From the NCBI GenBank assembly GCA_021325135.1, contig JAJPHT010000036.1:32001-96000 (forward strand): a stretch of DNA of 64,000 nucleotides. The letters run 5' to 3'. Below, piece by piece: positions 40-15,534 of this stretch. Source of the stretch: Pseudomonadota bacterium (GTDB lineage: Archaea; Thermoplasmatota; SW-10-69-26; JACQPN01; JAJPHT01). Position 1 is the first letter of the stretch, and each line of letters begins with the position of its first letter. A program made the position numbers and the translations under genes. A model generated the notes under the pieces. The model had not been told where the DNA came from. It did no database searches and was given only the letters and a program-made list of their open reading frames with translations.

Positions 40-792
40 ATGATCCGGACCCTCATCGTGAACGGCTTCGTCGCCGCCCTTGCGCTGACCCAGGTGGGCT
101 TCGCGACGGCGGACAACACCTGCGCGCACAACAACGACCACGTCTACGAGCTTGCGACCTCCAACACGGTCCACAGCGACCTGTACCAGGGCCTGTTTGG
201 CTTCCTCTCCAACACGGACAACGGCCTGACGGGGAAGTCGGAGGGGATCCGGCAGGACTTTTCGGTGCGCGTGTACACGTCGGCGCGGGACTGCGGCAGC
301 GGAACGGACACGGACTTCACGGGTGAGTACGACACCGGCATCGGCGGCGGCTTCTTCGGCGCCACGGACGTGTACGACCCCGACTGCGGCTACGATCTCG
401 CGGTCCACGCCTCGACGGGCATGGTCACCGACCCGTTCGCCGCCCTCGTCGACTCGTCGCCCCGCGGCGCCTACGGCGTGGACGACGTCGAGGGGCCCAC
501 GCCGCTGCCCAACGGCGAGACGGTGCCGCAGGGCCTGGTGTCGGACGGGGCCCCCTACGCAGGGAACGGCTGCGTCACGGATGGGACCATCACGCCGGAG
601 ACCGACCCCTACGACTGCCTCAACGACTTCACCCCCTACGGAGTCGGGCAGTCCACCTGGGAGCCCGGCCCCTGCCTGAGCTTCGGCGGCGACGGGGGCT
701 ACTGGCTCTTCGTCGACTCGCGCATCGCCATGGACGGCCTGTCGATCCAGGACAACCCGGCGGCGCAGGGGCATCTCATCGCGGACGCCTAG
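40..792 (+). CDS. Secreted Asp/Gly-rich hypothetical protein
   Basis: Signal-peptide-like N-terminus (FVAALALTQVGFATA), GC3-rich codons, six Cys; no recognisable family. Confidence 0.75.
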   Translation: MIRTLIVNGFVAALALTQVGFATADNTCAHNNDHVYELATSNTVHSDLYQGLFGFLSNTDNGLTGKSEGIRQDFSVRVYTSARDCGSGTDTDFTGEYDTGIGGGFFGATDVYDPDCGYDLAVHASTGMVTDPFAALVDSSPRGAYGVDDVEGPTPLPNGETVPQGLVSDGAPYAGNGCVTDGTITPETDPYDCLNDFTPYGVGQSTWEPGPCLSFGGDGGYWLFVDSRIAMDGLSIQDNPAAQGHLIADA

Positions 793-1037
793 CGCGGCGC
801 GGCGTCGGCCGGCGCCTCGGGCTCGCCCGGCCCCGCGATGAGCGTCGTGATGCGCCCGTCGCGGTCGGCCACGGCCCAGAGGATGCGCCCGTGGGAGACG
901 CCCAGGGGCATCCAGTGGCCCTCGCGGGCGCCGCCCACCTGCACCGAGGCGTCCGCGCCCACCATGGCGAGGGAGCGCGCGAGGCGGGCGACGAGGTCCT
1001 GGAGGGAGGCGTCTTCGAGCGGGGCGGGGCCGCGCAT
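789..1037 (-). CDS. Small hypothetical protein (82 aa), W-x11-W domain copy 1
   Basis: ATG at 1037 inside ORF 789..1658 (MRGPAPLEDASLQDLVARLARSL...); motif shared with 14672..15199 and 15202..15534. Confidence 0.65.
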   Translation of the reverse strand: MRGPAPLEDASLQDLVARLARSLAMVGADASVQVGGAREGHWMPLGVSHGRILWAVADRDGRITTLIAGPGEPEAPADAAPR

Positions 1038-1100
1038 GCCCCTTCCTGGGGCCCGGAAGGGCTTAGGGGCGCGCTCGCCCGGCGCGGCGGGCCCCTGGCG

Positions 1101-1131
1101 CTTCTGCCCGTCACATCCGGGCGGGCAGAAG
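1101..1131. promoter_or_regulatory. Candidate operator: inverted repeat CTTCTGCCCG-N11-CGGGCAGAAG
   Basis: Perfect 10-bp arms in a divergent intergenic region; 1105..1123 matches 2460..2478 at 16/19 positions. Confidence 0.4.
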
Positions 1132-1253
1132 CCCGTCGTGCGTCCGGGGCGCGCCCGATCCATTGCCCGCGTGTGACGAGGCGCGCAGATATCTTCCCGC
1201 AGGTGGGTCCCAGATGCATGATCCCCCGCGGCCTCCCCTTCTTCGCCGTCGAG

Positions 1254-1505
1254 ATGGTCACCCCCGACGCGGGCTCCCGGCCCAGGGGTCCCCTTCTCGC
1301 GCGGCTCCTGGAGGCCTCCCGCGACGCGGACGCCGCTGAGGCGGCCCTGGCCGAGGCGCGGGCGCGCTACGGGCGCGAGCCCTCCCCCGCGGGCCTGGAG
1401 AAGATCCGCGAGGCGTCCCTGGACGCCCTCCAGAAGGAGCTTCGCTTCGAGGCCATCTGGAAGGGCGCGGCCCAGGACCTCCTGGCCGGCGAGCGCGAGG
1501 GCTGA
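1254..1505 (+). CDS. Small alpha-helical hypothetical protein (alternative start 1218)
   Basis: 3' part of ORF 891..1505 has coding-like codons; ARYG...FEAIWKGAAQDLLAG resembles the N-half of 14672..15199. Confidence 0.65.
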   Translation: MVTPDAGSRPRGPLLARLLEASRDADAAEAALAEARARYGREPSPAGLEKIREASLDALQKELRFEAIWKGAAQDLLAGEREG

Positions 1506-1510
1506 GCGCC

Positions 1511-2329
1511 CTACTCGGCGGCGCCCAGGACGCGGCGCGCCTTGGCCCACGTCTGGTCGAAGAAGAGCGCCTCGGCCTGGACGAAGCCGGGGGCCGTGGT
1601 GTGGATGGCCACCTCGTCGCGGGCGTGGAGCGACTCGGAGGGGTCGTTGACGACCCACATGAGCAGCTCGCCGCCGTCGACGATGAGGAACTGGATGGTG
1701 CTCTCCAGCGCGGGCGCGCGGACGCTCGCCCTGGCCGCGGCGCGGAACGCGTCCAGCTTGGCCCAGCCCGCGTCCGTGGCGCGCACGAGCATGCGCAGCG
1801 CCACGTCGTCGTCGCGGCAGCGGCGCAGGAGAAGGTCGAGGCCGCCCGAGCGGTCGCTCAGGACCACGCTGGGGGGGAACGTCGTGGCCCAGTCGATGCT
1901 CCCCTTCGCGCCCTCGATGAGCCGGTCGCGCAGCGCGTAGATCTCCTCGCGCCCCTGCACGACCTTGTACGTGCTCTTCATGGGCGCGTCGGCGGTGACG
2001 TGCAGCTGCGTGAGCAGCGGGAACACGCTGTCGCGGGCGAGGCGCAGCTCGTCCACCGAGGCCAGCCGGGAGGTGATCTCCGAGTCGAAGACCATCTTGG
2101 GGTTGACCGCCGCGTACCGCGCGGGCCTCTCCAGAGTCAATTCCACGAGGCCGCGGGAGAGGAGGCGCGTGGCGTTGCGGTAGACCTCGTTGCGGTGCAG
2201 CTTGAGGGCCGCGGCGAGGTCGCCCGCCTTGGCGGGACCGGCGAGGCAGAGGTGGACGTAGATGGCCGCCTCGCCCTCCTTGAGGTCGAGGGCGCGGCTG
2301 ACGGTCTCGATGGCATCGTGGACTCGCAT
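1511..2329 (-). CDS. TrmB-family transcriptional regulator (paralog 1)
   Basis: wHTH EAAIYVHLCLAGPAKAGDLAAALKLHRNEVYR...LLSRGLV...PARYAAV plus C-terminal PLD-like effector domain (FLIVDG...FFDQTW); ATG at 2329. Confidence 0.9.
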   Translation of the reverse strand: MRVHDAIETVSRALDLKEGEAAIYVHLCLAGPAKAGDLAAALKLHRNEVYRNATRLLSRGLVELTLERPARYAAVNPKMVFDSEITSRLASVDELRLARDSVFPLLTQLHVTADAPMKSTYKVVQGREEIYALRDRLIEGAKGSIDWATTFPPSVVLSDRSGGLDLLLRRCRDDDVALRMLVRATDAGWAKLDAFRAAARASVRAPALESTIQFLIVDGGELLMWVVNDPSESLHARDEVAIHTTAPGFVQAEALFFDQTWAKARRVLGAAE

Positions 2330-2459
2330 GGAGGCCGTCACTTGTTCACCACGCGGCGGCGCCGCGCCCGCTCCATCCCCGCGGGCGGGGATATGCCGTT
2401 GCCTCCCCGGGGGCGGCGGAGGGCGTGTTGTTCGCCGCGGGCGGGCAATCCGGGCCCCC

Positions 2460-2478
2460 TGCCCGCCACACCCGGGCA
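2460..2478. promoter_or_regulatory. Candidate operator TGCCCG-N7-CGGGCA
   Basis: Palindrome between divergent trmB and pilin genes; near-copy at 1105..1123. Confidence 0.35.
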
Positions 2479-2563
2479 AGCGCGCCGCCCGGCGGCCGTT
2501 CCGCGCAAGCCGATATGCCCGCCCGGCCGGCTCTCAGGGGTCGGACCTCAAGGAGGTCATGCG

Positions 2564-3010
2564 ATGTCGAAGATGATCCACGCCCTGAACCGGAACGACC
2601 GCGCGATCTCGCCCGTCATCGGCACCATCCTCATGGTGGCCGCGACGGTCATCATCGCCGGCGCCGTCTACGCCGCCGTGAACGCCTACAGCGGGAAGAG
2701 CGCCAAGACGCCCACCGAGGCGAGCTGGAAGGCCCAGACCATCGACTCCAATGGCGACGGGCTGGACGACACCATCAAGGTGACCTACCTGGCGGGCCCC
2801 GACGGAGCCTCGAACATCGGCTTCTCCTTGAAGCAGTCCAACGGCACGGCGCTCCCGGCCGGCGGCCTGCACTCGGGCACCTGGAGCCCCGGCGACTACG
2901 AGACGTACAAGCTCCAGTACGGCGCGCCCTCGGGAGCCGTCGCCGTGTACATCACCATCTCCCAGGCCGGCAACACCGTCCTGGACCAGACCCTTACGCT
3001 GCGCCAGTGA
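2564..3010 (+). CDS. Archaeal type IV pilin (probable major pilin)
   Basis: Class III signal NDRA|ISPVIGTILMVAATVIIAGAVY; Shine-Dalgarno AGGAGGT at 2551-2557. Confidence 0.92.
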   Translation: MSKMIHALNRNDRAISPVIGTILMVAATVIIAGAVYAAVNAYSGKSAKTPTEASWKAQTIDSNGDGLDDTIKVTYLAGPDGASNIGFSLKQSNGTALPAGGLHSGTWSPGDYETYKLQYGAPSGAVAVYITISQAGNTVLDQTLTLRQ

Positions 3011-3046
3011 GGCCGTGAACCGTCGTCCGACAAGGAAGCTGACCCC

Positions 3047-5062
3047 ATGCCTTCGATCGTCCCTGTGCTTGAGTTCGTCCATGCCTTGAACTCCGCTGGC
3101 GTCGCGGCGGACTACGCGACCACCGTCGCGAACCCCACGGAGCAGTGGAACAAGCTGCCCGTGGAGCGGCGCGAGGCCTTCCTCGTCGAGCACGGCGCCG
3201 AAGGCACGGCCCAGTGGGTCTCCAGCGTGAGCGCCGTCAAGCGGCGCGGGCGCGCGGCCGACGTGGAGAACGTGTTCATCATGATCGAGTTCTCCAACGG
3301 CCGCAAGCTCTCGGGCTCGGCGCGCCGCGCGGGCGCCCGCATGCTCTACAGCGCGTTCACGCCCGCCGCCCCCGTCGACGGGGCCGAGGAGCTTCTCCTC
3401 GCCATGGACTCCGGCGGCGAGGGGGGCCGGCTGCGCGTGCTCCACGTCCTCGACGCGGCGTGGGGCGGCGAGCCCTACGACGTGGCGCACGACGGCGAGA
3501 TCACGCGCTACGACGCGCCCGCCGGCTACCGCGAGAAGGAGCGCTACTGGCTGGAGGAGCCCTTCTCCATGGCCGTCATCCTGGAGGGCGAGGACCACGA
3601 GCTTCTCTACCACGTCCAGGAGCCGCAGCTCACGGGCCTGGAGGAGGCGCTCCTCTCGACGTTGAACGACCGGCTGCGCGACGTGCTCATCCTCCAGGAG
3701 GAGGGCGACGCGGGCCGCGCCGAGTTCCTGCTCGCCAAGGTCTTCCAGCTCCTGGGCATGTACCGCCTCAAGACGGACCGCCGCACGGCCTACAAGCTGG
3801 GCTACGTGTTCCTGCGCAACTACCTGGGCCTGGGCCGCCTGGAGCCCATCATGCACGACGTCCACGTGGAGGACATCTCGTGCAACGGGCCCAACCTGCC
3901 CGTCTTCGTCGCGCACAACGCGCACCAGTCGATGCGCACCAACATCGCGTTCGACGAGATGGAGCTCAACACCTTCACCGTGAAGCTCGCGCAGCGCGGC
4001 GGGAAGCTCCTCTCCATCGCGCAGCCCCTGGTCGACGCGTCGCTGCCCGGCGGCTCGCGCATCCAGGCCGTGCTGGGCCACGAGATCACCTCGCGCGGCA
4101 GCGCCTTCACCATCCGCAAGTTCCGCGAGGACCCGCTCACCGCGGTCGACCTCGTGAAGAACGGCACGCACTCCCTGGACACCATGGCGATGCTCTGGCT
4201 CGCGGTGGAGATGCGCCGCAGCATCCTCGTCATGGGCGCCACCGCGTCGGGCAAGACCACGACGCTGAACGCGCTCTCGCAGTTCGTCCCGCCGGCCCTC
4301 AAGATCGTCAGCATCGAGGACACGCGCGAGATCACGCTGAAGCACGACAACTGGCTCGCGGCCCTGACGCGCGAGTCGTTCACGGGCAGCGCGACCGACC
4401 GCGTCTCCATGTTCGACCTGCTGCGCGCCGCGCTGCGCCAGAGGCCCGACTACCTCATCGTGGGCGAGATCCGCGGCGTGGAGGGCCTCACCCTCTTCCA
4501 GGCCATGAGCACCGGCCACACCTGCTTCAGCACGATGCACGCGGGCAGCGTGGAGAACGCCGTCTACCGCCTGGAGAACGCCCCCATCAACGTGCCCCGC
4601 GTCATGCTCACCTCCCTGGACTTCCTCGTGGTCCAGGGGCAGGTCAACCACGAGGGGCACCCCGCGCGCCGCATGCTCTCGTTGACCGAGATCAACGGCA
4701 TCGACCCCCAGAGCCGCAACCTGCGCGTGAACGACCTGTTCCACTGGGACGCGGCCAAGGACCACCACGACGCCGTGGCCGAGAGCGCCGTCTTCGAGCG
4801 CGCCCGCAGCAAGGGCGGCTGGAGCCGCGCGCGCCTGGACGAGGAGTTCTCGGCGCGCCGCCGCGTGCTGGACCGCCTCGTCAACCGCAACGAGCGCCAC
4901 TACCACGACGTGGCCAAGGCCGTCAGGCAGTTCTACGCGGACCGCTCCGAGCCCTCCGACTGGGTGCCCGGCCCCGTCTTCCCCGCCGTCGAAGGCGAGG
5001 CGTTCCCCGCGAAGCCCCTCGACGAGCCCGCGCAGGCCCGCCGCGCCAAGAGCAACCGCTGA
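3047..5062 (+). CDS. Type IV pilus assembly ATPase (VirB11/FlaI/PilB family) with unusual N-terminal domain
   Basis: Walker A GATASGKTT, SIEDTRE, ALRQRPDYLIVGEIRG, TGHTCFSTMHA. Confidence 0.95.
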   Translation: MPSIVPVLEFVHALNSAGVAADYATTVANPTEQWNKLPVERREAFLVEHGAEGTAQWVSSVSAVKRRGRAADVENVFIMIEFSNGRKLSGSARRAGARMLYSAFTPAAPVDGAEELLLAMDSGGEGGRLRVLHVLDAAWGGEPYDVAHDGEITRYDAPAGYREKERYWLEEPFSMAVILEGEDHELLYHVQEPQLTGLEEALLSTLNDRLRDVLILQEEGDAGRAEFLLAKVFQLLGMYRLKTDRRTAYKLGYVFLRNYLGLGRLEPIMHDVHVEDISCNGPNLPVFVAHNAHQSMRTNIAFDEMELNTFTVKLAQRGGKLLSIAQPLVDASLPGGSRIQAVLGHEITSRGSAFTIRKFREDPLTAVDLVKNGTHSLDTMAMLWLAVEMRRSILVMGATASGKTTTLNALSQFVPPALKIVSIEDTREITLKHDNWLAALTRESFTGSATDRVSMFDLLRAALRQRPDYLIVGEIRGVEGLTLFQAMSTGHTCFSTMHAGSVENAVYRLENAPINVPRVMLTSLDFLVVQGQVNHEGHPARRMLSLTEINGIDPQSRNLRVNDLFHWDAAKDHHDAVAESAVFERARSKGGWSRARLDEEFSARRRVLDRLVNRNERHYHDVAKAVRQFYADRSEPSDWVPGPVFPAVEGEAFPAKPLDEPAQARRAKSNR

Positions 5063-7033
5063 GTGATCCCCATGGCCGTCACCTTCCGCCGATTCAGCTC
5101 CCTCTGGTTCCGCGCGCTCGAGCCCGTGGTCTCGACGGCGCAGAGCAACGCCGCCACCGCCAAGGCGCTGCGCGCGGCGCGCATCGGGATGTTCCCCGAG
5201 TGGTACATGGCGCTCTCCTACCTCGCGTCCACCGCGACCGCCCTCGTCCTGGGCGCCGCGATGTGGGCCGCCCTCGCCGCGACGCGGGCGCTCGCCGGCT
5301 TCCCGCTGGGGCGGCCCCTCCTGGCCGTCATGGTCGCGGCGTTCGCGTTCCTCTGCATGCGCCTCGGCTTCCTCGCGTACCCGCGCCTCACGGCGGCGGG
5401 CCGCGCGCGGCGCATCGACGCGGAGATGCCGTCCGTTGTGACGCTCTGCTACGCCCTCGCGCAGGGCAACGTCGCGCCCCTGGAGATCATCCGCGCCGTC
5501 GCCTCCGAGCGCAACGCCTACGGCGAGGCCGCCGTGGAGTTCGGCGTCGTCATCCGCAACGTGGAGTGGCTGGGCCTGGACCTCGTCTCCGCGCTGAAGG
5601 AGACGGCGGCGACCTCGCCCAGCGCGCGGCTGCGCTCCTTCTTCGACGGCCTCGTGACCATGCTAAACTCGGGCGCCGACGCGAAGGACTACTTCATGCA
5701 CCAGGCGAAGACGGAGCTCAACGAGGCCGACATGGCCTTGGAGAAGGACCTGGAGCAGGCCTCGATGCTGGCCGAGATCTACGTGAGCGGCCTGCTCGTG
5801 CTGCCCCTCCTCCTCATGGTCGTCATCAGCGGCCTGGCCCCCCTCGCGGCGGGCCAGACGGCGCTCATCCCGTTCATCGTGTTCGCCTTCATCCCGCTGG
5901 GCACCATCGTCTACCTCATCCTCGTGGAGACGCTGCTGCCCCCCGTGAGCCTGGAGGTGCCCGACCTCGACGCGCAGCGCCTCGCCGACTTCGGCCTCGC
6001 CAGCGTGCCCGCGCAGACGCGCCTGCTGCCGCCCCCGTGGGAGACCAGCTGGCCCGCCAACGTCCCCGAGGGCGAGGGCAAGGAGGCCGCCCGCGAGGCG
6101 CGCCGCCTGCGCCGCGAGATCATGGTCCAACGTTTCCGCCAGCGCATGGTGGCGTCGTGGCGCCGCTTCACGGGCCGCATGCTCGCGCACCCCACCGACG
6201 CGCTCCAGTTCTCGGGCCTCGTGGGCGCGGCCGTCATCATCGGCGGCGGCGCCGTCGCGTGGATCAACGGCCTGCGCGGCAACGACCTCGCCCTCGTGGG
6301 CACGGGCGTCCTCGTGGCGGGCGCCATCTGCGCCGCCATCCCCGTGAGCGTCTTCCACGAGATCCGCGTGCGCCGCGCGCGCCGCGTCGAGGAGACGATC
6401 CCCGACAACCTCACCAAGCTCGCCGGCTTCAACGAGCGCGGCATCGGCCTTCTCCAGTCCTTCGAGATCCTGGGCCGCTCCGCGACGGGCCCCCTCGCCG
6501 CGGAGTTCCGCGCCGTGGAGCGCGACGTCTCGTGGAACGGCAACCTCGTGAGCGCCCTGCGGCGAATGCGGCAGCGCGTCAACGCGCTGGCCATGTCCAA
6601 GGTGGGCATCCTCATGGAGCGCGCCTCCGCCGCCACGGGCAACCTCCGCGAGGTGCTGGACATCGCGGCGACGGACGCGACGAAGCGCGAGAGCCTCCGC
6701 GGCACGCGCCGCCAGGCGATGCTCAGCTACGTCGTCGTGATCTACATCGTCTTCGCGGTGTTCCTCTACGTGCTCTACATGGTCGCCAACCTCTTCTACG
6801 GCCCCGCCGGCCTTGGCGCCGCGGCGGCCTCGACGACGGGCGGCGGCCTCTCGCAAGGGCTCCAGGCGCAAACGGCGCGCGTGCTCTTCGCGCAGGCCGC
6901 CGTGATGCAGGGGATCTGCTGCGGCATGGTCGCGGGCCGCCTGGGCGAGGGCTACGTCCTCTCGGGCCTCAAGCACGCGGCCATCCTGGGCGCCAGCGCC
7001 TACGCCGTCTTCCTCCTGGGGGTCCTCGCGTGA
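5063..7033 (+). CDS. Type IV pilus membrane platform protein (TadC/FlaJ, duplicated T2SSF domain)
   Basis: Two cytoplasmic T2SSF-like segments (IDAEMP...SPSARLRSFFDGL; VEETIPD...SALRRM) alternating with TM helices; directly after the ATPase. Confidence 0.92.
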   Translation: MIPMAVTFRRFSSLWFRALEPVVSTAQSNAATAKALRAARIGMFPEWYMALSYLASTATALVLGAAMWAALAATRALAGFPLGRPLLAVMVAAFAFLCMRLGFLAYPRLTAAGRARRIDAEMPSVVTLCYALAQGNVAPLEIIRAVASERNAYGEAAVEFGVVIRNVEWLGLDLVSALKETAATSPSARLRSFFDGLVTMLNSGADAKDYFMHQAKTELNEADMALEKDLEQASMLAEIYVSGLLVLPLLLMVVISGLAPLAAGQTALIPFIVFAFIPLGTIVYLILVETLLPPVSLEVPDLDAQRLADFGLASVPAQTRLLPPPWETSWPANVPEGEGKEAAREARRLRREIMVQRFRQRMVASWRRFTGRMLAHPTDALQFSGLVGAAVIIGGGAVAWINGLRGNDLALVGTGVLVAGAICAAIPVSVFHEIRVRRARRVEETIPDNLTKLAGFNERGIGLLQSFEILGRSATGPLAAEFRAVERDVSWNGNLVSALRRMRQRVNALAMSKVGILMERASAATGNLREVLDIAATDATKRESLRGTRRQAMLSYVVVIYIVFAVFLYVLYMVANLFYGPAGLGAAAASTTGGGLSQGLQAQTARVLFAQAAVMQGICCGMVAGRLGEGYVLSGLKHAAILGASAYAVFLLGVLA

Positions 7034-9420
7034 GCCTCCGAAGGAGCGACGAGGGCGTCTCCGACGTCATCGGCACGATCATCCTCATCGCCATCACGGT
7101 CTCCCTCGTGGGCGTGGCGGTGGGCGGCCTCTACTCCGCCGGCACCGGGCAGAAGACCGCGCTGCCGCGCCTCGACCTCAAGGCCAGCGCGCTGGCCAGC
7201 GGCGCCGCCAACGGCAGCGTCACCCTGACGCACGCCGGCGGCGCGAACTTCAGCCGCGCCGACCTCGACGTGCAGGTGACCTCAGGCGGCGTCCTCTACG
7301 GCCGCGCGCCCTTCCCCAACGCGACCTCGTGGTGGGACGTGGGCGAGGCCGTTCCGTTCAACCTCTCCAAGCCCCTCACGGGCGGCGAGCACCTGGAGAT
7401 TGACGTGATCTCGCGCCCCCTGGGCGCCGTCGTCTCCACGGCCATCGTGGACGTCCCCTCCCTGGGCTCCTCCGCGCCGCCGCTGGGCACCTTCACCGTC
7501 ACCGCGACCGCGCCTTCGGGCCTCTTCCCCGCGGACGTCTCGCCCGGGTCGGTCCTGCGCGTCGCCGCGCACGTCGCGCACCCCGACGGCCGCAAGGCCA
7601 TCGCGTCGGCGTGGGTCGACCTCTCGCCCCTCCACGGCCCCGCCGTGCTGCGGCTGGAGGACGACGGCGCGGGCGCGGACCTCGTCGCGGGCGACATGGA
7701 GTTCGCGGCCTACGTGAGCATCCCTCCCGAGGCCACGCCCTCCGACACGCCCGTCCCGCTGGCCCTCAACGCCCTGGACGTCGACGGCAACCGCGCGCCC
7801 GCGAGCCCCGGAAGCTCGCTGAGCGTGCGCGTCGTCCTCGCGGGCCTCGCGAACACCACCATCAACAACCAGGGCAACGTGACGGTGAACAACCCCACCA
7901 ACGTCACCATCATCCCGGGCGGCGCCGGGACGCCGGGAGCCCCCGGAAGCCCCGGCTCGCCCGGCAGCCCCGGAGCCCCCGGAAGCGGCGGCGCGGGCAA
8001 CGTCACCATCGAGGGCAACGTGTCCAACCTGACCATCGTCTACAACAACAGCACGGAGGTCAACGGCACCGGCGGCCCCGCCGGTCCCCCCGAGCTGCGC
8101 GAGCCAAGCCCCTTCGCGCCCGTCTCGGGGACCGCCAACACGCTCGTCGACGTCTTCGGCCGGAACTTCAGCTTCGTGAACTCGGTGCGCCTCGTGGGCG
8201 GCCCCGGCGCTCCGCTGGGCGTCGTCTGGTGGATCATCGACGACACGCACCTGCAGCTCATCGCGCCGGTGACGGCCGTGGCCGGCGACTATCAGGTCGC
8301 CGTGACGGACCCCATCGGCTCCGACACGAGCGTCGAGTCGTTCCACCTGGACCTGCCGGTGAACCAGCCCGGCTCGCCGCCCACCATCACCAGCATGACG
8401 CCGGCGCACGGCTTCGCCGGCACGGAGGTCACGCTGCGCGGGACGAACCTCGCGTTCCTCTCCAGCGTGCGCCTCTCCGGCGGATCGTTCGTGTTCCCCA
8501 CGGCGTTCTTCACGGTGGGCTCCGGCGGCACGGAGACGCACTTCTTCGTGCCCGACGGCGCGCCGCCCACGAGCTACACCGTGACCGCCAGCAGCGCGGG
8601 CGGCTCCGCCACGGCGCCGGGCCTCTTCACCATCGACCCGCCGCCCCCCACGAACAAGCTCAGCATCACCGGCTTCACGCCGACCCAGGGCGTGCCCTTC
8701 ACGCAGATCAACCTCACGGGCACGGGCTTCCTGGGCGTCGTCGCCGCGAACGTGGGCGGCGCCAACGTCGCCATGTGGGTCGTGAACGACACGGCGATGT
8801 CGGTCCTCACGCACCCAGCGGTCCCCGTGCAGCGCTTCAACCACATCACGCTGTTCAACGCGACGGGAAGCGTCGACGTGTGCTGCTTCAACGAGCTGGA
8901 GAACCCCAACGCGCACGAGTACGCCGTCTACCCCACGGGCTACTTCGACCGCATGGCGATCAACGTCACCAAGTCGGGCAGCACCGTCTCGGCGACGCTG
9001 AAGTTCAACCTCACGAACTACTCGTTCGTGGCCGGCGGCTCGACGTACACGCTGACCTCCGTCACCATGGAGTCGCCCGCGTTCAAGCCCGGCACGCAGA
9101 TCACCGACACCGTCGACGCGATCAGCGGCACGGTCCCGGCGAGCCGCGTCTCGCCCACGCCGTGCGGGCCCTCGGGCCCCCAGCGCAACGGCACGTACGT
9201 CATCACGTTCTCGCAGTCGCCCAAGAAGTACGACGGGAGCATCGACACGTACCCGTTCCTGTTCATCTTCGAGTGGACGTCGGCGACGAACAACTTCGAC
9301 GTCACCGTCGGATCGAGCGTGAACGCCCAATACTTCTCGCTCGGCCCCCAGAGCACGTCCAAGATCATCATGGATGGTCCCAACTATGACTGGCCCACGA
9401 CGTTCAACAACTGCAGCTAG
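7030..9420 (+). CDS. Large minor pilin/adhesin (796 aa): pilin N-domain, DDG..D..aGD module, GxP repeat, three IPT/TIG-like domains
   Basis: GTG overlapping the upstream TGA; SDEG|VSDVIGTIILIAITV; PTITSMTPAHGFAGTEVTLRGTNL and SITGFTPTQGVPFTQINLTGTGF; real portion of ORF 3145..9420. Confidence 0.88.
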   Translation: MSLRRSDEGVSDVIGTIILIAITVSLVGVAVGGLYSAGTGQKTALPRLDLKASALASGAANGSVTLTHAGGANFSRADLDVQVTSGGVLYGRAPFPNATSWWDVGEAVPFNLSKPLTGGEHLEIDVISRPLGAVVSTAIVDVPSLGSSAPPLGTFTVTATAPSGLFPADVSPGSVLRVAAHVAHPDGRKAIASAWVDLSPLHGPAVLRLEDDGAGADLVAGDMEFAAYVSIPPEATPSDTPVPLALNALDVDGNRAPASPGSSLSVRVVLAGLANTTINNQGNVTVNNPTNVTIIPGGAGTPGAPGSPGSPGSPGAPGSGGAGNVTIEGNVSNLTIVYNNSTEVNGTGGPAGPPELREPSPFAPVSGTANTLVDVFGRNFSFVNSVRLVGGPGAPLGVVWWIIDDTHLQLIAPVTAVAGDYQVAVTDPIGSDTSVESFHLDLPVNQPGSPPTITSMTPAHGFAGTEVTLRGTNLAFLSSVRLSGGSFVFPTAFFTVGSGGTETHFFVPDGAPPTSYTVTASSAGGSATAPGLFTIDPPPPTNKLSITGFTPTQGVPFTQINLTGTGFLGVVAANVGGANVAMWVVNDTAMSVLTHPAVPVQRFNHITLFNATGSVDVCCFNELENPNAHEYAVYPTGYFDRMAINVTKSGSTVSATLKFNLTNYSFVAGGSTYTLTSVTMESPAFKPGTQITDTVDAISGTVPASRVSPTPCGPSGPQRNGTYVITFSQSPKKYDGSIDTYPFLFIFEWTSATNNFDVTVGSSVNAQYFSLGPQSTSKIIMDGPNYDWPTTFNNCS
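7927..7980 (+). repeat. Coding 9-bp repeat encoding (Gly-X-Pro)6
   Basis: GTP GAP GSP GSP GSP GAP within the large pilin. Confidence 0.85.
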
Positions 9421-10321
9421 ACTCCGTGACGACGACCGCGCCGTTGCGGGCGTCGTCGGCTTCGTCCTCGTGCTCGCGGTGCTCGTGACGTACTTCGCGT
9501 ACGTCGCGCGCTCCGACGTGCCCCGCTGGGGCGCGGACGCCGAGCGCGCCTGGGACGGGAACGTGGGCGACTCGCTGGCGCGCCTCGACCGCACGGCCGC
9601 GGCCTCGCTGGGCACCGACGCCTCGACGACCGGCTCGCTGCCCGCGCCTCCGCAGCCGCGCGCGTTCGACATCCCCCTCGTCGCGCGCACGCAGGCCGCG
9701 CCGCCCACGGGCGCGCTGGCCTTCGAGCCCAACTGCGGGAACCTGACCGCGACGCACGTCGCCAACGGCGTCGTCGTCCCCGACGTCACCGACGGCGCGC
9801 ACGGCTGCCTCGTCTTCCGCGAGCAGGGCACCTACGCGGCCTCGTACGGCTACCGCTCCGAGTTCGGCGGCCTGCTGCGCGTCGAGCGCGACCGCGCCTT
9901 CGTCGTCGCGGGCCCTCCGCTGGAGCTTGGCAACGAGAGCGGGCGCTACCTCGTGGGCGTCACGTTCCTGGAGCTTCGCGGCGCGGCCAGCTCGGGCGCG
10001 GTGGGCGCCTCGGGCCTCACCGTGGACCTCGTCCCGGGCCCCGCCCTCGCGGAGACGGGCCAGACCGTCAACGCGGCCTCCGCCAACTGGACCTTCCAGA
10101 CGCTCTACCCCCAGGCGTGGAAGGCGTGGTTCGACGGCCAGCTCTCGCAGGCCGGCTTCGACCCCGCGCTCAACTACGCCTGCCTCCAGGGGGACGCGCG
10201 CTGCCCCGGCCTCCAGCCCAACGAGATCCGCGTCGTCCTGGGCGGCCCCGACCCCTCGCCCGCCACCAGCGACCTCGCGCTCTCCATCTCGTATGGCCGC
10301 TACGACGCGACGCTGAAGTGA
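9374..10321 (+). CDS. Pilin-like protein with class III signal peptide (minor pilin)
   Basis: DDRA|VAGVVGFVLVLAVLVTY...VPRW...E pattern typical of euryarchaeal T4P-associated proteins; last gene of the operon. Confidence 0.8.
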   Translation: MVPTMTGPRRSTTAARLRDDDRAVAGVVGFVLVLAVLVTYFAYVARSDVPRWGADAERAWDGNVGDSLARLDRTAAASLGTDASTTGSLPAPPQPRAFDIPLVARTQAAPPTGALAFEPNCGNLTATHVANGVVVPDVTDGAHGCLVFREQGTYAASYGYRSEFGGLLRVERDRAFVVAGPPLELGNESGRYLVGVTFLELRGAASSGAVGASGLTVDLVPGPALAETGQTVNAASANWTFQTLYPQAWKAWFDGQLSQAGFDPALNYACLQGDARCPGLQPNEIRVVLGGPDPSPATSDLALSISYGRYDATLK

Positions 10322-10404: not shown

Positions 10405-10419
10405 AAAACCCCAAATTCA

Positions 10420-10448
10420 CATCTTATCTCCACTGTGGAGACAAGATG
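10420..10448. promoter_or_regulatory. 29-bp palindrome, candidate operator
   Basis: CATCTTATCTCCAC-T-GTGGAGACAAGATG (13/14 arm match) in an AT-rich stretch upstream of 10545. Confidence 0.5.
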
Positions 10449-10544
10449 ACAAATCGCCCCGCTTCCTGCGAAGTGTTATCTTTTCGTTAGGCCTTGCGGC
10501 GCCGGTGGCGGCTTGTCCGCCCCCCGGTGAACGGTGAAACCTTC

Positions 10545-11312
10545 ATGGCCCGCAACCTCCTCCCTCGCACCGTGGCTGCCCTCCTGGTCCTCTCCGCCCT
10601 GGGCGGCCTTGCCCTGCCCGCCAGGGCGGCGCTCGTCTATTCAGACTGCGTCTCCTACCTTGGCCAGGCCATGGCGCCCCCCGGAGGCGCCGCGGGCGCC
10701 GCGCCCCCTCGCGGCCCGGCCTGCCTGGACGGGAACGAGGTCGGGGACCCGGCGGCGCGCGGATCGCCACCCGGCGAATACCTCGACCTCGCGACGGGCA
10801 TCGTCTATCGCCAGGCGGGCCCCCAGTACGTCCCCGTCGGCTTGGGGGTCCCCCAAGGAGGATACGTCGAGCTCACCGCCGAGTCCTGGGCGGGCAACTC
10901 GTACTGCAGCAGCACGAACCCCCTCATGTGCCCCGACCCCATCGTCACGCAGACCCCGTGCGACGCCCAGCTGTGCGAGTCCCTCCACGTGGCCGTGACG
11001 GGGTGCCACGACGTCCAGGTCCAGCTCGATTTCGGGCCTTTGGGCTCGGCCGCGACCGGAGAGCGGTACGAGACGCACGACTATCCTCCTCAGGGGTGCG
11101 TGGCGGACGCCGACGTGTATCTCCCGGCCATGGAGCGCGGCCCGCTGGTCCCTGGAGCCGGCTTCTTCGGCCCGGTGACCCTGATCACCGACGCGTTCAA
11201 CGACGTGCCAAGCTGCTGGCTGAGCGGCACCCACATCCTGCCCCAATCCGTGACCAGCACGGTCCTCGTCGGAGGCCGGGCGTTCCCGCCCATCGTGAAC
11301 AGGATCTGCTGA
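10545..11312 (+). CDS. Secreted Cys-containing hypothetical protein
   Basis: Signal peptide MARNLLPRTVAALLVLSALGGLALPARA; paired Cys. Confidence 0.7.
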   Translation: MARNLLPRTVAALLVLSALGGLALPARAALVYSDCVSYLGQAMAPPGGAAGAAPPRGPACLDGNEVGDPAARGSPPGEYLDLATGIVYRQAGPQYVPVGLGVPQGGYVELTAESWAGNSYCSSTNPLMCPDPIVTQTPCDAQLCESLHVAVTGCHDVQVQLDFGPLGSAATGERYETHDYPPQGCVADADVYLPAMERGPLVPGAGFFGPVTLITDAFNDVPSCWLSGTHILPQSVTSTVLVGGRAFPPIVNRIC

Positions 11313-11325
11313 AGGAGGCCTCCCT

Positions 11326-11928
11326 TTGCGTTCCCTTTCGATCTTCCTTGCCCTCGCGTTCGTCTGGCCCCTGGCGCATGCTGGAGACGCGAACGACCCC
11401 GAGATCCGCGACGGGAGCCGGGACGTCGATCCCGACTTCGTCTCCATCGCGCTGGGCGCTCCCGAGATCGACCTCCTTGCCGTGTGGTTTGACGCGAACG
11501 ACACGACGGTCGCGTTCCACTGGCAGGTCGTGGATGCCTCCCACAGGCTCTTCGCCGATGAGGGGAGGAGCTTCGCGCTGACGTTCCGCTGCGGCTCGGA
11601 CGAGGCGGCGGCCATCGTCACGCTCCTCCCCGCCTTCACGTACCAGGGGGAATCCTATCCCCCCGAGTCGACCGCCAGCGTGACCGTCTATCACCCCGAC
11701 AATGGCACCACGGAGGGCGAAGACAGCGCCGCCTGGGAAACCGGCAACGTGGCGCACGCAGAGGCCCCCCGAAGCCTGTTCCGCTGCGTGAGCTTCACAC
11801 AGGAGATCGCCACGACGAACCTCCTGATCCACGAGGGGAACGGCCAGTGGGGCGGCCCCAGCGGGTCGGGATGGTTCCGCGACATCGCCCCCGACCAGGG
11901 GTACGGCCGCGACTTCGCGCTGGGGTGA
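11326..11928 (+). CDS. Secreted hypothetical protein
   Basis: TTG start after AAGGAGG; signal peptide; acidic DPEIRD...DIAPDQGYGRDF motifs. Confidence 0.7.
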   Translation: MRSLSIFLALAFVWPLAHAGDANDPEIRDGSRDVDPDFVSIALGAPEIDLLAVWFDANDTTVAFHWQVVDASHRLFADEGRSFALTFRCGSDEAAAIVTLLPAFTYQGESYPPESTASVTVYHPDNGTTEGEDSAAWETGNVAHAEAPRSLFRCVSFTQEIATTNLLIHEGNGQWGGPSGSGWFRDIAPDQGYGRDFALG

Positions 11929-11932
11929 GGCC

Positions 11933-12607
11933 TCACACCACGCTGTTCTCCATGGAGATGGTGTAGCCCAGGCCCGGCTCCAGCGCGACCTCGAAGAGGG
12001 GGACGTGGTCGCCGCCCAGGACGGGGGCGAGGCCGCGCAGCTTGGAGATGACGAGGATGCGGCGGCGCGCGGGGCCGCCGTCCTGCCAGGAGAAGCGCAG
12101 CACGCCGTCGGCGCCCTCCGCCAGGTGGGCCTCGACGGGGGCGGGGAGCGTGCCGGGGGCGTGGAGGAGGAGGAGCACGACGCCCTGCGCGTGGGCGGCG
12201 TCGGCCAATTCGTGCCAGAGGGGCATGACGCTCCAGCCGTCGCCGGGCTTGGCCAGCGAGTCGGCGGACTCCACCACGAGCACGTCGCCCTTCTGGAGGC
12301 CGGCGAGGAGCTCGGCCACGTCGTCGGGCGCGATGGCGGAGCGCAGGACGCGGACCTCGATCTTGGCCTCGGCGCCGTCCTCGAAGAGGGCGGCCACCTC
12401 GGCGCGGACGCGGGCCGCGGAGCGCAGGGCCGAGGCGAACATGGCCTTGTGGCCCTCCTTGGCCAGGGATGCGGCGTGCAGCAGGGTGAGGGCGAACTCG
12501 GTGGCGCCGGCGCCCTCCTCCCCGCTGACGAGGAGCGAGGTCCCGGGGGTGATCCCCCCGGCCAGCGCCGCATCCAGGACGCGGCTTCCGGTCTGCACTC
12601 GTTCCAT
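11933..12607 (-). CDS. KaiC/RAD55-like single-domain ATPase homolog, probably inactive
   Basis: TGSRVLDAALAGGITPGTSLLVSGEEGAGATEF, ADGVLRF, RRILVISKLRG; Walker A Lys replaced by Ala. Confidence 0.88.
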   Translation of the reverse strand: MERVQTGSRVLDAALAGGITPGTSLLVSGEEGAGATEFALTLLHAASLAKEGHKAMFASALRSAARVRAEVAALFEDGAEAKIEVRVLRSAIAPDDVAELLAGLQKGDVLVVESADSLAKPGDGWSVMPLWHELADAAHAQGVVLLLLHAPGTLPAPVEAHLAEGADGVLRFSWQDGGPARRRILVISKLRGLAPVLGGDHVPLFEVALEPGLGYTISMENSVV

Positions 12608-12631
12608 GGGGTGGAGCAGGCCGTCCCGCGG

Positions 12632-13516
12632 CTATAGAGCCCTGCCCGCGTCGGCCGTGCGAACACGCGGCCCGTCCGGGGCGGGCGCGGGGCGCTCCCC
12701 GGGGGCCCCAGGGTAGCGGGCGGCGTTGGCCCAGCACTGCTCGAAGAAGACCCGCTCCGCCTCCAGGAGGCCCGGGGCGCTGGTGTGGAGCGCCACGTCG
12801 TCGGGCGCGTAGAGCGACCGGCTGGGGTCCTCCACGACGGAGAGGACGATCTCCTTGCCGTCCACGATGAGGAAGTGCACCGCGCGGTCCGTGGGCAGGT
12901 GGCGCACCTCCAGCCCCGGGCGGGCAGGCAGGAGCCCGGCGCGCAGGAGAGTCTCCTCCGGGACGTTGAGGAGGAAGCGCATCTCGGGGCGCTCCTCGCC
13001 GGGGGCCAGGATGGCGTCCAGCGTGCCGTCGAACTCCGCGATGGCGATGGCGTGGGGCGAGGTGGTGAGGGCCAGCACCTCGTGGCGCGCGCCGGCGATG
13101 AGCTTGCGGCGCGCGGCGCTGATCTCCTGGCGCCCCTGGAGGATGCGGTAGACCGTCTTCTGGGGGCCCTGCGCGTCGCACTGGAGCGCCTTCACGAGGT
13201 CGGTGGTGCGCTGGCGGGAGGACTTGAGCGCCTCCAGCGCCGCGAGGCGCGCCTCGATCTCCAGGTCCAGCACCTTGAGGGGGTCCGCGGCGGTGTAGCG
13301 CGCGGGGCTCTCCAGCGTCGTCTCCACGAGGCCGCGCGCGCCCAGGCGCTCCAGGCTGCGGTACACGTCGTTGCGGTGGACCTCCAGCGCCTCGGCCAGG
13401 TCGCTGACCTTCCAGGGGCCCGCGACGCAGAGCTTCACGTACACGGCCGCGTCGCCCGCGCTGACGTTGAGCGTCTCGCGGACGTGGTCGACGGCGTCAT
13501 TGAGCCGGAGCGCCAT
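12632..13516 (-). CDS. TrmB-family transcriptional regulator (paralog 2)
   Basis: LCVAGPWKVSDLAEALEVHRNDVYR...RGLVE; C-terminal FLIVDG...FFEQCW. Confidence 0.9.
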   Translation of the reverse strand: MALRLNDAVDHVRETLNVSAGDAAVYVKLCVAGPWKVSDLAEALEVHRNDVYRSLERLGARGLVETTLESPARYTAADPLKVLDLEIEARLAALEALKSSRQRTTDLVKALQCDAQGPQKTVYRILQGRQEISAARRKLIAGARHEVLALTTSPHAIAIAEFDGTLDAILAPGEERPEMRFLLNVPEETLLRAGLLPARPGLEVRHLPTDRAVHFLIVDGKEIVLSVVEDPSRSLYAPDDVALHTSAPGLLEAERVFFEQCWANAARYPGAPGERPAPAPDGPRVRTADAGRAL

Positions 13517-14417
13517 GTGTCTCGAACCCGCCCAGAGGGACCGGCTCCCGGGGAATAACCGTGTCGCGAGTCCGGGCCCGGCCTGCCGACAGGAGGGGGT
13601 CTGCGCGGGGGGTGCCCACGGGGCGGGCAGCGGCCCAGCTCTGCTCGAAGAAGACCTTCTGGGCGTAGAGGAAGCCCGGCGCGGTCGTGTGGATGGCCAC
13701 CTCGTCCTCGGCGTTGAGGCTGGGGTTGGGGTCGTTGACGACGAACATGAGCAGCTCGCGGTCGTCCACCATGACGAAGCGCACGAGGCCGGGCGCGTCG
13801 AACTCGCGCATCTCGGCGTCGGGCGCGTCCACCAGCTCCCCCGCCGCGGCGTGGAGGGCCGGCGAGGGGGGCAGGAGCGCGCGGAAGCGCAGGCCCGCCA
13901 TGGCGCGGCGGCGCACCAGGGCCCACTCGCCCGACTCCTCCCAGAGCTTCAGCGCGAGGCCGTAGGTGGAGACCCAGTCGACGCTGCGCTGCGCGCCGCT
14001 GATCATGAGCTGGCGGACGTGGTAGATCTCGCGCCTCCCACGGAGGACCTTGTACGTGCTCTGCGTCGCGGGGCGCCCTCCGCCCATGGCCCCCACGAGG
14101 GCCTCGATCTCGACGCGCGTGCGGCGCAGCGTCTCGATGGCCTTCAGGCGCGCCTCCAGCGTCTCGTCGAAGACCTGCGCGAGGTCCACCGCGGCGTAGC
14201 GCGCGGGGTGGTCGTCCGTCATGCGGACCAGGCCGCGGGCGCCCAGGCGCTCGGCGGTGCGGTAGACCTCGTTGCGGTGGATCTTCAGCGCCTCGGAGAC
14301 GTCGCTCGCCTTGGAGGGGCCGGCCATGCAGAGATGGAAGTAGAGCGCGGCTTCCTCCGGGGCGATCCCCAAGTGCTGGCGAAGCTCGGCGAGGACCGTC
14401 TCCGACTGGGCGGGCAT
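13497..14417 (-). CDS. TrmB-family transcriptional regulator (paralog 3)
   Basis: ATG at 14417; LCMAGPSKASDVSEALKIHRNEVYR; C-terminal FVMVDD...FFEQSW. Confidence 0.9.
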   Translation of the reverse strand: MPAQSETVLAELRQHLGIAPEEAALYFHLCMAGPSKASDVSEALKIHRNEVYRTAERLGARGLVRMTDDHPARYAAVDLAQVFDETLEARLKAIETLRRTRVEIEALVGAMGGGRPATQSTYKVLRGRREIYHVRQLMISGAQRSVDWVSTYGLALKLWEESGEWALVRRRAMAGLRFRALLPPSPALHAAAGELVDAPDAEMREFDAPGLVRFVMVDDRELLMFVVNDPNPSLNAEDEVAIHTTAPGFLYAQKVFFEQSWAAARPVGTPRADPLLSAGRARTRDTVIPREPVPLGGFETHGAPAQ

Positions 14418-14671
14418 GGGGGCACGCTCGCACCAGGGGGACCATAACATGGCGCAGGCTCCGATTCCCCACCTTCCGAAAGGGACACAACCCCGGGAGC
14501 GGGCGCACGTCTGCCCGGCTGGGACGTGCGCCCCTTCTTCCCTCCCCCGAGGCCATGGCTCCTCCACGGTGGAAGCGTGGACTCCAACGACACGGGCGTG
14601 AATCTCGACAAGCGCAGCCCATCCCGGGCCCTCCACGCTTCCACCTCGCTCTCCACCGCGGGGGCGCTCCC

Positions 14672-15199
14672 GTGACGGAAAACCGCAAGCGGAGGGGGTC
14701 CCCCGGCCACGAGCACGAGGACGCCGTGCAGGCCGCCCGCGAAGAACTCAACCGCGCCATGCGCGCCATGTTCGCCCGCTGGGGCGAGGGCCGCATCGCG
14801 CTCCCCGCCGACCGAGCCCGGGCCAAGGAGGCCGTCGAGGAGGCCGAGAACGCCTTCGAGGCGGCGCGCAAGCGGCTCGATGCGCTGCTGGCGGGCGGCG
14901 AGCCGCACCTGGACGTCGCCGCGCTGCGCGCCGCCGTGGAGCGGCTCGCCCGCGCCCTGGAAGCCGGGCAGGCCGACCCCGAGACGCTGACGCGGGGGCC
15001 CTCCGTGTTCGGCGCCCTGCGCGAGCCCGTGCCGGGGCTCACCGATGCGCACTGGCGCCACGAGCGCGCCGCCCTGGACGTCGACGTGTGGGTCCTCGCG
15101 GATGCGCGCGCTGGCGTCGTCGCCCGGATCACCCACAGCCGCGAGCGCCCAGGGTGGAAGGCCTCGGTGCTCAACGAGTCGACCGGCGAGCTGGACTGA
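14672..15199 (+). CDS. Hypothetical protein: helical domain fused to W-x11-W domain (copy 2)
   Basis: GTG at 14672 in ORF 14555..15199; N-half resembles 1254..1505, C-half resembles 789..1037 and 15202..15534. Confidence 0.7.
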   Translation: MTENRKRRGSPGHEHEDAVQAAREELNRAMRAMFARWGEGRIALPADRARAKEAVEEAENAFEAARKRLDALLAGGEPHLDVAALRAAVERLARALEAGQADPETLTRGPSVFGALREPVPGLTDAHWRHERAALDVDVWVLADARAGVVARITHSRERPGWKASVLNESTGELD

Positions 15200-15201
15200 G
15201 G

Positions 15202-15534
15202 CTACGGGTCGAAGAGCTGCACGCGCCACTGCGTGGGCTTGGGAGCCCCCAGCCGCAGCGTGGCCAGCACGCGCCCATCCAGGTCGCGCAGCGCCCAGGA
15301 GCCCTCGCGCCGGCCCACGGAGACGCGCTCCCAGCGCGCGGCCTCGAACCCCTCGATGGGCCTCCCGCTGGGGTCCTCCACCCGGTGGTCCGTGAAGAGG
15401 GCGTCCGCCGTGGCCGCGTCCACGTGGGCCGCATTGAGGGCGTCGGCAAGGCGGACCAGGGAGCCGCGGAGGCGGGCAGCGGCAGGGGGTGGGACGGGCG
15501 CCACGACGCTCCCCACGCCATTCGAAGCCGTCAA
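15202..15534 (-). CDS. Small hypothetical protein, W-x11-W domain copy 3
   Basis: LRGSLVRLADALNAAHVD...GFEAARWERVSVGRREGSWALRD; converges on the previous gene with a 2-bp gap. Confidence 0.7.
   Translation of the reverse strand: MTASNGVGSVVAPVPPPAAARLRGSLVRLADALNAAHVDAATADALFTDHRVEDPSGRPIEGFEAARWERVSVGRREGSWALRDLDGRVLATLRLGAPKPTQWRVQLFDP

Follow-up and report, generated by a model that had tools for sequence, protein, structure and literature searches.

Archaeal type IV pilus (T4P) loci recurrently encode KaiC-family ATPases and assorted transcription factors, which have been predicted to act as T4P modulators, and in Methanomicrobia KaiC families adjoin ATPase/TadC operons, according to the passages considered here of the 2016 T4P census (Makarova, Koonin & Albers 2016, PMC4858521). 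Here we describe such a locus in a 64,000-nucleotide stretch of DNA (the window; GenBank assembly GCA_021325135.1, contig JAJPHT010000036.1, positions 32,001 to 96,000, designated G000:C27:32001-96000) from a soil Thermoplasmatota archaeon, in which an operon for adhesion-type pili is bracketed by three TrmB-type regulators (TrmB1-3) and a KaiC-like gene lacking the catalytic P-loop lysine, with small genes for helical and W-x11-W proteins at its edges. Like the census loci, the window combines a KaiC-family gene and winged helix-turn-helix (wHTH) regulators beside a VirB11-type ATPase/TadC/pilin operon (PMC4858521). It differs from them in a fixed pseudo-ATPase whose operon also contains one or two TrmBL2-like genes, and the census passages in question mention neither TrmB-type regulators inside T4P loci nor Thermoplasmatota nor the loss of the Walker A lysine (PMC4858521). 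The original prediction, made from the letters of this locus, regarded its architecture as undescribed. This stands insofar as a lysine-less KaiC in a TrmB operon is not mentioned in those passages, whereas the occurrence of KaiC genes and transcription factors in pilus loci of archaea had already been reported there (PMC4858521); as both the census and CirA (see below) are precedents, the locus does not represent a categorically new system. The balance of evidence tips slightly towards a pilus operon that would be subject to two layers of local control, one exerted by TrmB1 and one by a TrmB3-TrmB2-KaiC-like operon.

Among functional precedents, CirA of Haloferax volcanii is closest to the KaiC-like gene. 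Its gene adjoins the arl cluster in reverse orientation, CirA reduces arl transcription (PMC10983859), and a model has been proposed in which it tunes the transcription factor CsmR (PMC13286277). In both cases a KaiC-like gene lies in the opposite direction beside a T4P-type filament cluster. CirA differs in its functional Walker A motif (a G33E change is disruptive) and its proposed phosphorylation, whereas the window protein is devoid of the catalytic lysine; furthermore, the partner of CirA is Lrp/AsnC-like and its target the archaellum, whereas the window combines TrmB with an adhesion pilus. ArlH/FlaH is the KaiC-like protein with which the archaellum ATPase ArlI partners (bioRxiv 10.1101/2021.03.19.436134; PMC13286277). 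It resembles the window protein in its single-domain RecA/KaiC fold of ~225-230 amino acids (aa) and its association with a T4P-superfamily ATPase. Its gene, however, is part of the arl operon, and ATP is bound via a canonical Walker A motif, whereas the window gene is lysine-less and located on the opposite strand.

TrmBL2 of the Thermococcales and TrmB1-3 are alike in length (~264-306 aa) and in combining a wHTH with a C-terminal alpha/beta domain without a sugar-binding domain. TrmBL2 is a global, non-specific DNA binder that acts as a chromatin-like repressor; its similarity to the window TrmBs is low, and the latter differ in being locus-linked paralogues with a conserved HRN[ED]VYR recognition helix. 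The Lrs14/AbfR1 proteins (pfam01978) belong to the same Pfam wHTH family (TrmB, PF01978) as TrmB1-3 and regulate pili, archaella and biofilm formation in Sulfolobus; in the census passages they are described as never being encoded in T4P loci (PMC4858521). They differ in their length of ~100 aa, compared to ~270-300 aa in TrmB1-3, which are adjacent to the locus.

The pilus operon and its TrmB and KaiC-like genes

The host metagenome-assembled genome (MAG) G000 (3.77 Mb, 94% complete) belongs to an uncultured lineage whose relatives include MAGs from soil and sand. With a GC content of ~71% in the window, raw lists of open reading frames (ORFs) were unreliable, and genes were therefore called from codon-position GC, translation and family scans of the window proteins against Pfam and NCBIfam. 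The gene content, order and coordinates of the original prediction proved essentially right, with minor corrections such as the start of the helical gene at 1218. Samples of 401 genomes from the phylum, 21 from the class and nine from the taxonomic family (f1) were compared; the genome of the sister species G002 is 99% complete. The metagenomic contigs used for comparison were mostly short, and two long contigs from the European Nucleotide Archive (ENA) were read as gene tables. The features of the locus are as follows (window coordinates and strand).

789..1037 (-): small ORF of 82 aa with coding-type GC by codon position
1218..1505 (+; start at 1254 in the original prediction): Hel1, small helical protein of 95 aa, convergent on TrmB1
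1511..2329 (-): TrmB1, wHTH protein of TrmBL2-like size (Pfam TrmB, E 2.4e-12)
2330..2563 (unstranded): divergent promoter region of 234 bp between TrmB1 and pilin, with a palindrome, a GATAT box and AGGAGG before the ATG
2564..3010 (+): major-pilin candidate of 148 aa with class III signal peptide (Pfam Pilin_N, E 2.3e-11)
3047..5062 (+): PilB3-like T4P assembly ATPase of 671 aa with N-terminal extension (Pfam T2SSE, 1e-38)
5072..7033 (+): TadC/PilC-like polytopic membrane platform protein (Pfam T2SSF in two stretches, 2.7e-22)
7030..9420 (+): large pilin-like surface protein of 796 aa with class III signal peptide (Pfam Pilin_N, 2.4e-9; NCBIfam arch_flag_Nterm)
9374..10321 (+): pilin-like DUF7289 protein (pilin3), last conserved gene of the operon (Pfam DUF7289, 1.9e-7)
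10545..11312 and 11326..11928 (+): two species-specific secreted proteins of 255 and 200 aa with signal-peptide-like N-termini
11933..12607 (-): KaiC-like pseudo-ATPase of 224 aa with Walker A GEEGAGAT (Pfam KaiC, 27.9 bits)
12632..13516 (-): TrmB2, 294 aa (Pfam TrmB, 3e-14)
13497..14417 (-): TrmB3, 306 aa (Pfam TrmB, 5.9e-14)
14672..15199 (+): fusion of a helical hairpin and a W-x11-W domain, 175 aa, divergent from TrmB3
15202..15534 (-): stand-alone W-x11-W protein of 100-110 aa, its gene tail-to-tail with that of the fusion
15614..21967 (+): four genes for secreted proteins or lipoproteins, with housekeeping genes beyond them

After the last small gene, two tandem paralogous secreted/lipoprotein genes (445 and 441 aa) without Pfam match occupy 15614-18313.

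The KaiC-like protein belongs to the Pfam family KaiC (PF06745; 27.9 bits vs a cut-off of 26.6), which it matches over residues 4-74 only, and a profile of its clade retrieved KaiC from the Protein Data Bank (PDB) at 1.4e-17, with weaker matches to RecA and RadA. The loss of the Walker A lysine stated in the original prediction was borne out: GEEGAGAT replaces the canonical GxxGxGK[ST], the lysine position is occupied by Ala, Ser or Gly in all six homologues from family f1, and the canonical motif is present in none of 61 metagenomic homologues. The Walker B motif hhhhD is likewise replaced by VLVVES, with Glu113 instead of Asp being invariant in the clade. The K-x-R-G motif of the arginine-finger/oligomer interface is retained, with K189, R191 and G192 invariant in the alignment and KxRG present in 56 of the 61 metagenomic homologues. 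Among the sampled phylum genomes the clade was found (at E <= 1e-25) only in family f1, where it occurs in six of the nine genomes with all five genera represented. As the lysine is missing in 61/61 homologues and K-x-R-G is kept in 56, we regard these proteins as a fixed, old and selected pseudo-ATPase clade rather than as decayed genes, and the combination of lysine loss and K-x-R-G retention argues for an oligomeric, non-catalytic role. Identity with ArlH/FlaH is not indicated, as the protein scores 24 bits with NF052589 (cut-off 215) and its gene is on the strand opposite to the operon. Precomputed matches to DUF7125 (PF23442.2) exist for the window protein (P0021) and most of its homologues; the older model PF23442.1 matched nothing in the genome (E <= 0.001).

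TrmB1, TrmB2 and TrmB3 all exceed the Pfam PF01978 cut-off (46.9, 53.0 and 52.1 bits vs 25.6), are mutually 43-44% identical over their full length and have the HRN[ED]VYR helix in common. Within the genome none of them has a closer relative than the other two, and the next-best TrmB is 29% identical. None reaches the sugar-sensing TrmB/TrmBL1 equivalogs (23 bits vs 500 for NF047392 and 15 vs 650 for NF047390), and the PDB structure of TrmB, 3qph, matches them over the wHTH only; their closest solved structure is TrmBL2 (E ~1e-4, profile positions 7-208 of 292). A 75%-identical orthologue of TrmB1 occupies the same divergent position in the sister species (G002:C104), and TrmB1 is a candidate local regulator of the pilus operon. 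The TrmB3 gene overlaps the start of TrmB2 by 20 nucleotides (nt), and a gap of 24 nt separates TrmB2 from the KaiC-like start codon; this overlap, the short gap and the conservation of the genes suggest that the three products act together.

The pilus operon encodes two Pilin_N proteins together with T2SSE, T2SSF and DUF7289 proteins (Pfam), which is the composition of an archaeal adhesion-type T4P. Assignment of its ATPase to the archaellum fails (391 bits with the FlaI equivalog vs a cut-off of 550), and no archaellin or arlCDEFG genes were detected at the locus by Pfam scans. The match of the window ATPase to PilB3_N is weak (E 0.002), and close homologues match PilB3_N without this qualification. 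Orthologues of the pilin were identified in G002, G008 and G007, and the large pilin-like protein has a 59%-identical orthologue in G002. The two secreted proteins at 10545..11928 yielded no Pfam or NCBIfam match and no tblastn match in relatives.

At the 3' side, the stop codons of the second secreted gene (+) and the KaiC-like gene (-) are 4 nt apart (window 11926-11935), and the equivalent convergent genes on the ENA contig ERZ1761204 overlap by 4 nt; transcripts from this junction would thus overlap, and antisense interference is possible. At the 5' side, the pilin promoter contains the palindrome GCCGCC-C-GGCGGC (2484..2496) ~17 nt upstream of the GATAT box (2512..2516). The block 2480..2520 is conserved with G002 (L065:12382-12775), the remaining spacer having diverged with large indels, and represents a candidate operator. 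Within the window the palindrome is unique, does not occur at other promoters and is not enriched, its count being below the shuffled expectation. The same spacer in G002 carries a >100 bp insertion of GGGAAG-type purine-rich repeats and a partly complementary CTTCCC stretch.

Recurrence of the arrangement in related genomes and metagenomes

The bracketing of a pilus operon by TrmB paralogues and a lysine-less KaiC, on which the original prediction was built, is recurring rather than a one-off (G002, ERZ1761204, L102-L105). The 231-kb contig ERZ1761204, whose KaiC-like protein is 60% identical to that of the window, shows the whole layout: a TrmB gene followed by the KaiC-like gene converges on genes for a 301-aa protein, a Pilin_N protein of 859 aa, T2SSF, T2SSE with PilB3_N and a Pilin_N protein of 161 aa, and another TrmB gene is divergent at the pilin end. 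Two contigs from the Joint Genome Institute (JGI), L102 and L103 (KaiC-like 66% identical), encode orthologues of TrmB3 (46%) and TrmB2 (54%) and the KaiC-like protein in the order of the window. A TrmB gene is likewise followed by the KaiC-like gene on L104 and L105, and on the latter the pair converges on a pilin3 homologue. In G002, the pilin-ATPase-TadC-bigpilin-pilin3 operon is conserved at 59-79% identity with the 75%-identical TrmB1 divergent from the pilin; the contig (C104) ends directly past TrmB1, and the 3' side of the operon is occupied by genes for a glycosyltransferase, a histidine kinase and an HTH_10 protein.

The KaiC-like gene also converges on pilus operons without any TrmB (ERZ1758434, G008:C24, G005:C205), and its convergent neighbour is a homologue of the DUF7289 protein pilin3 in G008 and G005 as well as in L105. 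In G007:C48 it is located 4.6 kb from a pilus operon. In G008, a gene of 296 aa that diverges from the pilin was considered as a TrmB counterpart and rejected, as it is not TrmB-like. In Methanoperedens-type MAGs, distant lysine-less homologues (~22% identity) are separated from ATPase/TadC/pilin genes by 4-5 kb, which reproduces the association reported in the census. Taken together, these loci define a conserved unit in which TrmB1 stands at the 5' end of the pilus operon and an accessory TrmB(-TrmB)-KaiC-like operon abuts its 3' end.

Several further observations concern KaiC-like genes at these and other loci. On L102, a gene for a 1302-aa CLIPPER/CARDB surface protein lies divergent from the TrmB-TrmB-KaiC-like operon, which also adjoins a Big_13/HYR protein of at least 1722 aa, with an S8 protease downstream. 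The host genome has five T2SSE ATPase loci, of which four lie within ~4 kb of a KaiC-family gene (G000:C26:29373-37097, C38:2400-3062, C24:82181-82645); an open frame of ~915 aa with three tandem KaiC domains is located near the T2SSE locus on C26, and C38 carries a separate pair of archaellum-like ATPase and KaiC-like genes. Another T4P locus, from a genus other than that of the window (L076, G007:C31:40500-60499), contains a gene at 7344-8522 (-) that encodes a KaiC-like domain fused to an Arf/Ras-like small GTPase domain and lies between a DUF7289 pilin/ATPase/TadC cluster and genes for a response regulator and a TrmB.

Small W-x11-W and helical genes at the locus edges

The W-x11-W and helical genes are genuine members of a tiny orphan family and occupy the variable edges of the locus, outside the conserved module. 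The fusion gene (14672..15199) and the stand-alone gene (15202..15534) matched the P0008 locus in tblastn searches (4e-14 and 9e-12, respectively) and are members of one family, the product of the latter matching the W-x11-W family profile at E 7e-32. A six-frame genome search identified a fourth W-x11-W copy at G000:C26:13373-13966 (L034:9874-10467, -; E 1.3e-9). Searches with the fusion protein retrieved only itself, and it has no Pfam or NCBIfam match. Besides the window proteins and repeat-rich chance matches, a three-copy profile identified eight further small homologues among 1.84 billion cluster representatives, at least four of which (including P0005, P0007 and P0010) share the helical-hairpin plus W-x11-W architecture of the fusion; the family is thus real and the fused form common in it. 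Within the phylum sample it is confined to two of the 401 genomes, G000 and one species of the same genus.

The product of 789..1037 matched a family profile built without it at 17.2 bits (E 0.022 at Z = 1e5), through the W-x11-W hairpin only, and the gene was absent from the results of the six-frame genome profile search at E <= 1. It is a borderline, probably truncated or degenerate W-x11-W member, for which the synteny with its helical neighbour Hel1 is the main support. Hel1 has no Pfam or NCBIfam match and two homologues, P0018 (L084, 40% identity) and P0019 (L099, 69% identity). Its start is most likely at 1218, as it then has an M-[IV]-P-R N-terminus in common with a homologue. On L084, the Hel1 homologue and a genuine W-x11-W gene are arranged divergently, as is the 789..1505 pair; on L099, the gene convergent downstream of the Hel1 orthologue is not a TrmB. 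The possibility that Hel1 is a homologue of the N-terminal half of the fusion, or of the whole W-x11-W family, was rejected at the sensitivity of this comparison (hhalign probability ~1%, with only 2 and 4 sequences). The original claim that the same three building blocks recur at both ends of the operon stands only in part, W-x11-W genes being robustly identified at the right flank, whereas 789..1037 is borderline at the left and profile comparison does not support homology of its helical companion to the fusion N-half. Since the three pieces occur in mirror order with their strands unchanged, the arrangement is accounted for neither by a simple inversion nor by a direct duplication.

Outside the window, none of the W-x11-W homologues at the inspected loci adjoins a TrmB, KaiC-like or pilus-operon gene, and hidden Markov models (HMMs) of the W-x11-W and helical proteins gave zero matches in the conserved TrmB/KaiC-like/pilus loci found elsewhere. 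The neighbours are genes for CarboxypepD_reg, nucleotidyltransferase, ABC and TBP proteins in G002:C8, DUF1294 and a Na/H exchanger on L025, DUF1761 on L026, a P-type-ATPase-like N-terminus on L083 and a GNAT-like gene on L084. In G002:C8, two tandem full-length TBP genes (L033:4720-5838; Pfam TBP, E ~1e-63 each) are located ~4 kb from the W-x11-W homologue. The copy on C26 of the host genome lies directly 3' of an integrase-like gene, a hint of mobile cargo, and ~12 kb from another T4P ATPase locus; its neighbours are a giant pilin-like gene (stop-to-stop frame of at least 1570 aa) and a pair of histidine kinase and response regulator genes.

AlphaFold2 (AF2) models with pLDDT values of 87.5 (fusion) and 88.3 consist of a long hairpin of helices and, after it, a further helix that packs against an antiparallel sheet of four strands. 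A structure search with the full fusion model retrieved only generic helical hairpins (Z ~9), and the W-x11-W domain alone reached Z 5.0 at best, with pilin-like alpha/beta rolls and immunity/inhibitor proteins at Z 3.3-5, which is too weak to assign a fold family. A predicted complex of Hel1 and the 789..1037 protein scored 0.17 relative to a mark of 0.32, which is evidence neither way. The W-x11-W and helical proteins probably serve as small protein-binding modules in the cytoplasm.

Models of pilus control and their implications

In the two-layer model, TrmB1 would be the resident regulator acting at the shared 234-bp promoter region, and the accessory TrmB3-TrmB2-KaiC-like operon, converging on the 3' end of the pilus operon, would provide the second layer. 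TrmB2 and TrmB3 probably form a heterodimer, and the KaiC-like protein may bind and modulate them as a non-catalytic oligomeric partner, comparable to the tuning of CsmR by CirA for archaellum genes, minus the phosphotransfer. Several findings weigh against this reading. Its functional links are all guilt by association. G002, whose genome is 99% complete, retains the pilus operon and TrmB1 but yielded no KaiC-like gene, and the KaiC-like module is thus dispensable for the pilus. No TrmB is present upstream of the KaiC-like gene in 8 of ~13 loci (G003, G005 (two loci), G006, G007, G008, ERZ1758434 and L106), which limits the TrmB/KaiC-like pairing to the sub-clade at least 60% identical to the window copy, and at the counter-example G003:C83 the genes on either side of the KaiC-like gene encode a multihaem cytochrome and an Obg-like GTPase. 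On L102 (1-8001, Ga0467038_0001311), the TrmB-TrmB-KaiC-like operon stands amid giant adhesin-like genes with no pilus operon in view. Lastly, three of the four W-x11-W copies of the host genome are clustered in 15 kb, each with a TrmB paralogue as its neighbour, which is poorly explained by chance.

The flanks of L102 suggest that the target of the TrmB-TrmB-KaiC-like operon may be cell-surface genes in general. The operon might accordingly be a regulator of cell-surface, adhesion or other genes that is found near pilus genes as part of a surface-gene island, with no dedicated role in pilus control. The giant CLIPPER/CARDB/Big_13 surface proteins and the S8 protease on L102, the four secreted or lipoprotein genes that follow at 15614..21967, the pilus operon of G002 without the module, and the nature of the nearest solved relative, TrmBL2, as a global chromatin-like repressor are all consistent with this explanation. 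We consider it rather unlikely, as the convergent KaiC-like/pilus junction was found in at least five independent contigs (48-66% identity) as well as in distant phyla, and a neutral neighbourhood is disfavoured by so frequent a recurrence. The same junctions (G008, G005, ERZ1758434, ERZ1761204 and L105) could instead reflect an action on the pilus machine itself: the KaiC-like pseudo-ATPase may dock on the hexamer of the PilB3-like ATPase and gate assembly as ArlH does on ArlI, with the TrmBs merely controlling its expression. ArlH is a precedent for a KaiC-like partner of the archaellum ATPase, the KaiC-like gene is linked more often to pilus operons than to TrmB, its distant homologues are located near ATPase/TadC genes, and the extra N-terminal domain of the pilus ATPase offers a possible docking site. 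Such a function is nevertheless unlikely, because the gene is never found within the pilus operon but always on the opposite strand, and in the closest sub-clade it is tightly operon-coupled to TrmB. Furthermore, ArlH has a canonical Walker A motif and needs nucleotide binding, whereas the KaiC-like clade has lost the lysine and scores far below the ArlH model (NF052589, 24 bits vs 215).

The original prediction went further and proposed a circuit of two mirrored modules, in which the W-x11-W and helical proteins are adaptors linking the TrmB trio, the dead KaiC and the N-terminal domain of the ATPase. None of the present results points to the coupling of transcription with the assembly ATPase that this circuit implies. 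The clustering of three of the four W-x11-W copies and of the sole helical gene within 15 kb, each beside a TrmB paralogue, the fourth copy ~12 kb from another T4P ATPase locus and the conserved divergent helical/W-x11-W pair on L084 speak for this circuit. We nonetheless regard it as very improbable. The W-x11-W family occurs in so few genomes of the phylum (2/401), its homologues outside the window lie beside unrelated genes, no small-gene copy is present in any other conserved TrmB/KaiC-like/pilus locus, and even the 69%-identical Hel1 orthologue is followed by a non-TrmB gene; an integral adaptor role is hence unlikely. Moreover, 789..1037 is a borderline member, the C26 copy lies directly 3' of an integrase-like gene, and according to hhalign neither the fusion N-half nor the ATPase N-domain is homologous to its proposed partner. 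The idea that the N-terminal 200 aa of the ATPase are a copy of the W-x11-W domain was rejected at a hhalign probability of 0.1%. The linkage to pilus or KaiC genes that was expected of the small domains and the TrmB subfamily fared little better: the unrelated neighbours of the small genes come close to contradicting it, and the HRN[ED]VYR subfamily is present in 20 of the 21 class genomes with 1-5 copies each, mostly away from pilus genes, which were within reach in only two of 17 further loci.

The two-layer reading thus leaves the small genes outside the conserved unit. Extending it to the wider family, we tentatively propose, as a doubtful but conceivable generalization, that a lysine-less KaiC-fold pseudo-ATPase of the DUF7125 type and one or two TrmBL2-like regulators constitute a dedicated transcription-control module for PilB3-type adhesion pili, which is undescribed in the literature searched. 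A dead KaiC oligomer would here replace the small-molecule ligand as the signal input of TrmB, and the orphan W-x11-W and helical proteins may have been recruited as extra inputs in the host species. As a new orphan fold family, W-x11-W is limited in its general importance by its narrow distribution. The regulation of adhesion pili in archaea is poorly understood, and the roles of many archaeal KaiC-like proteins are largely hypothesis. The locus provides a first functional context for Pfam DUF7125, and a KaiC fold that has lost its P-loop lysine and is still under selection beside transcription factors and a pilus operon predicts a non-enzymatic scaffold or co-regulator.

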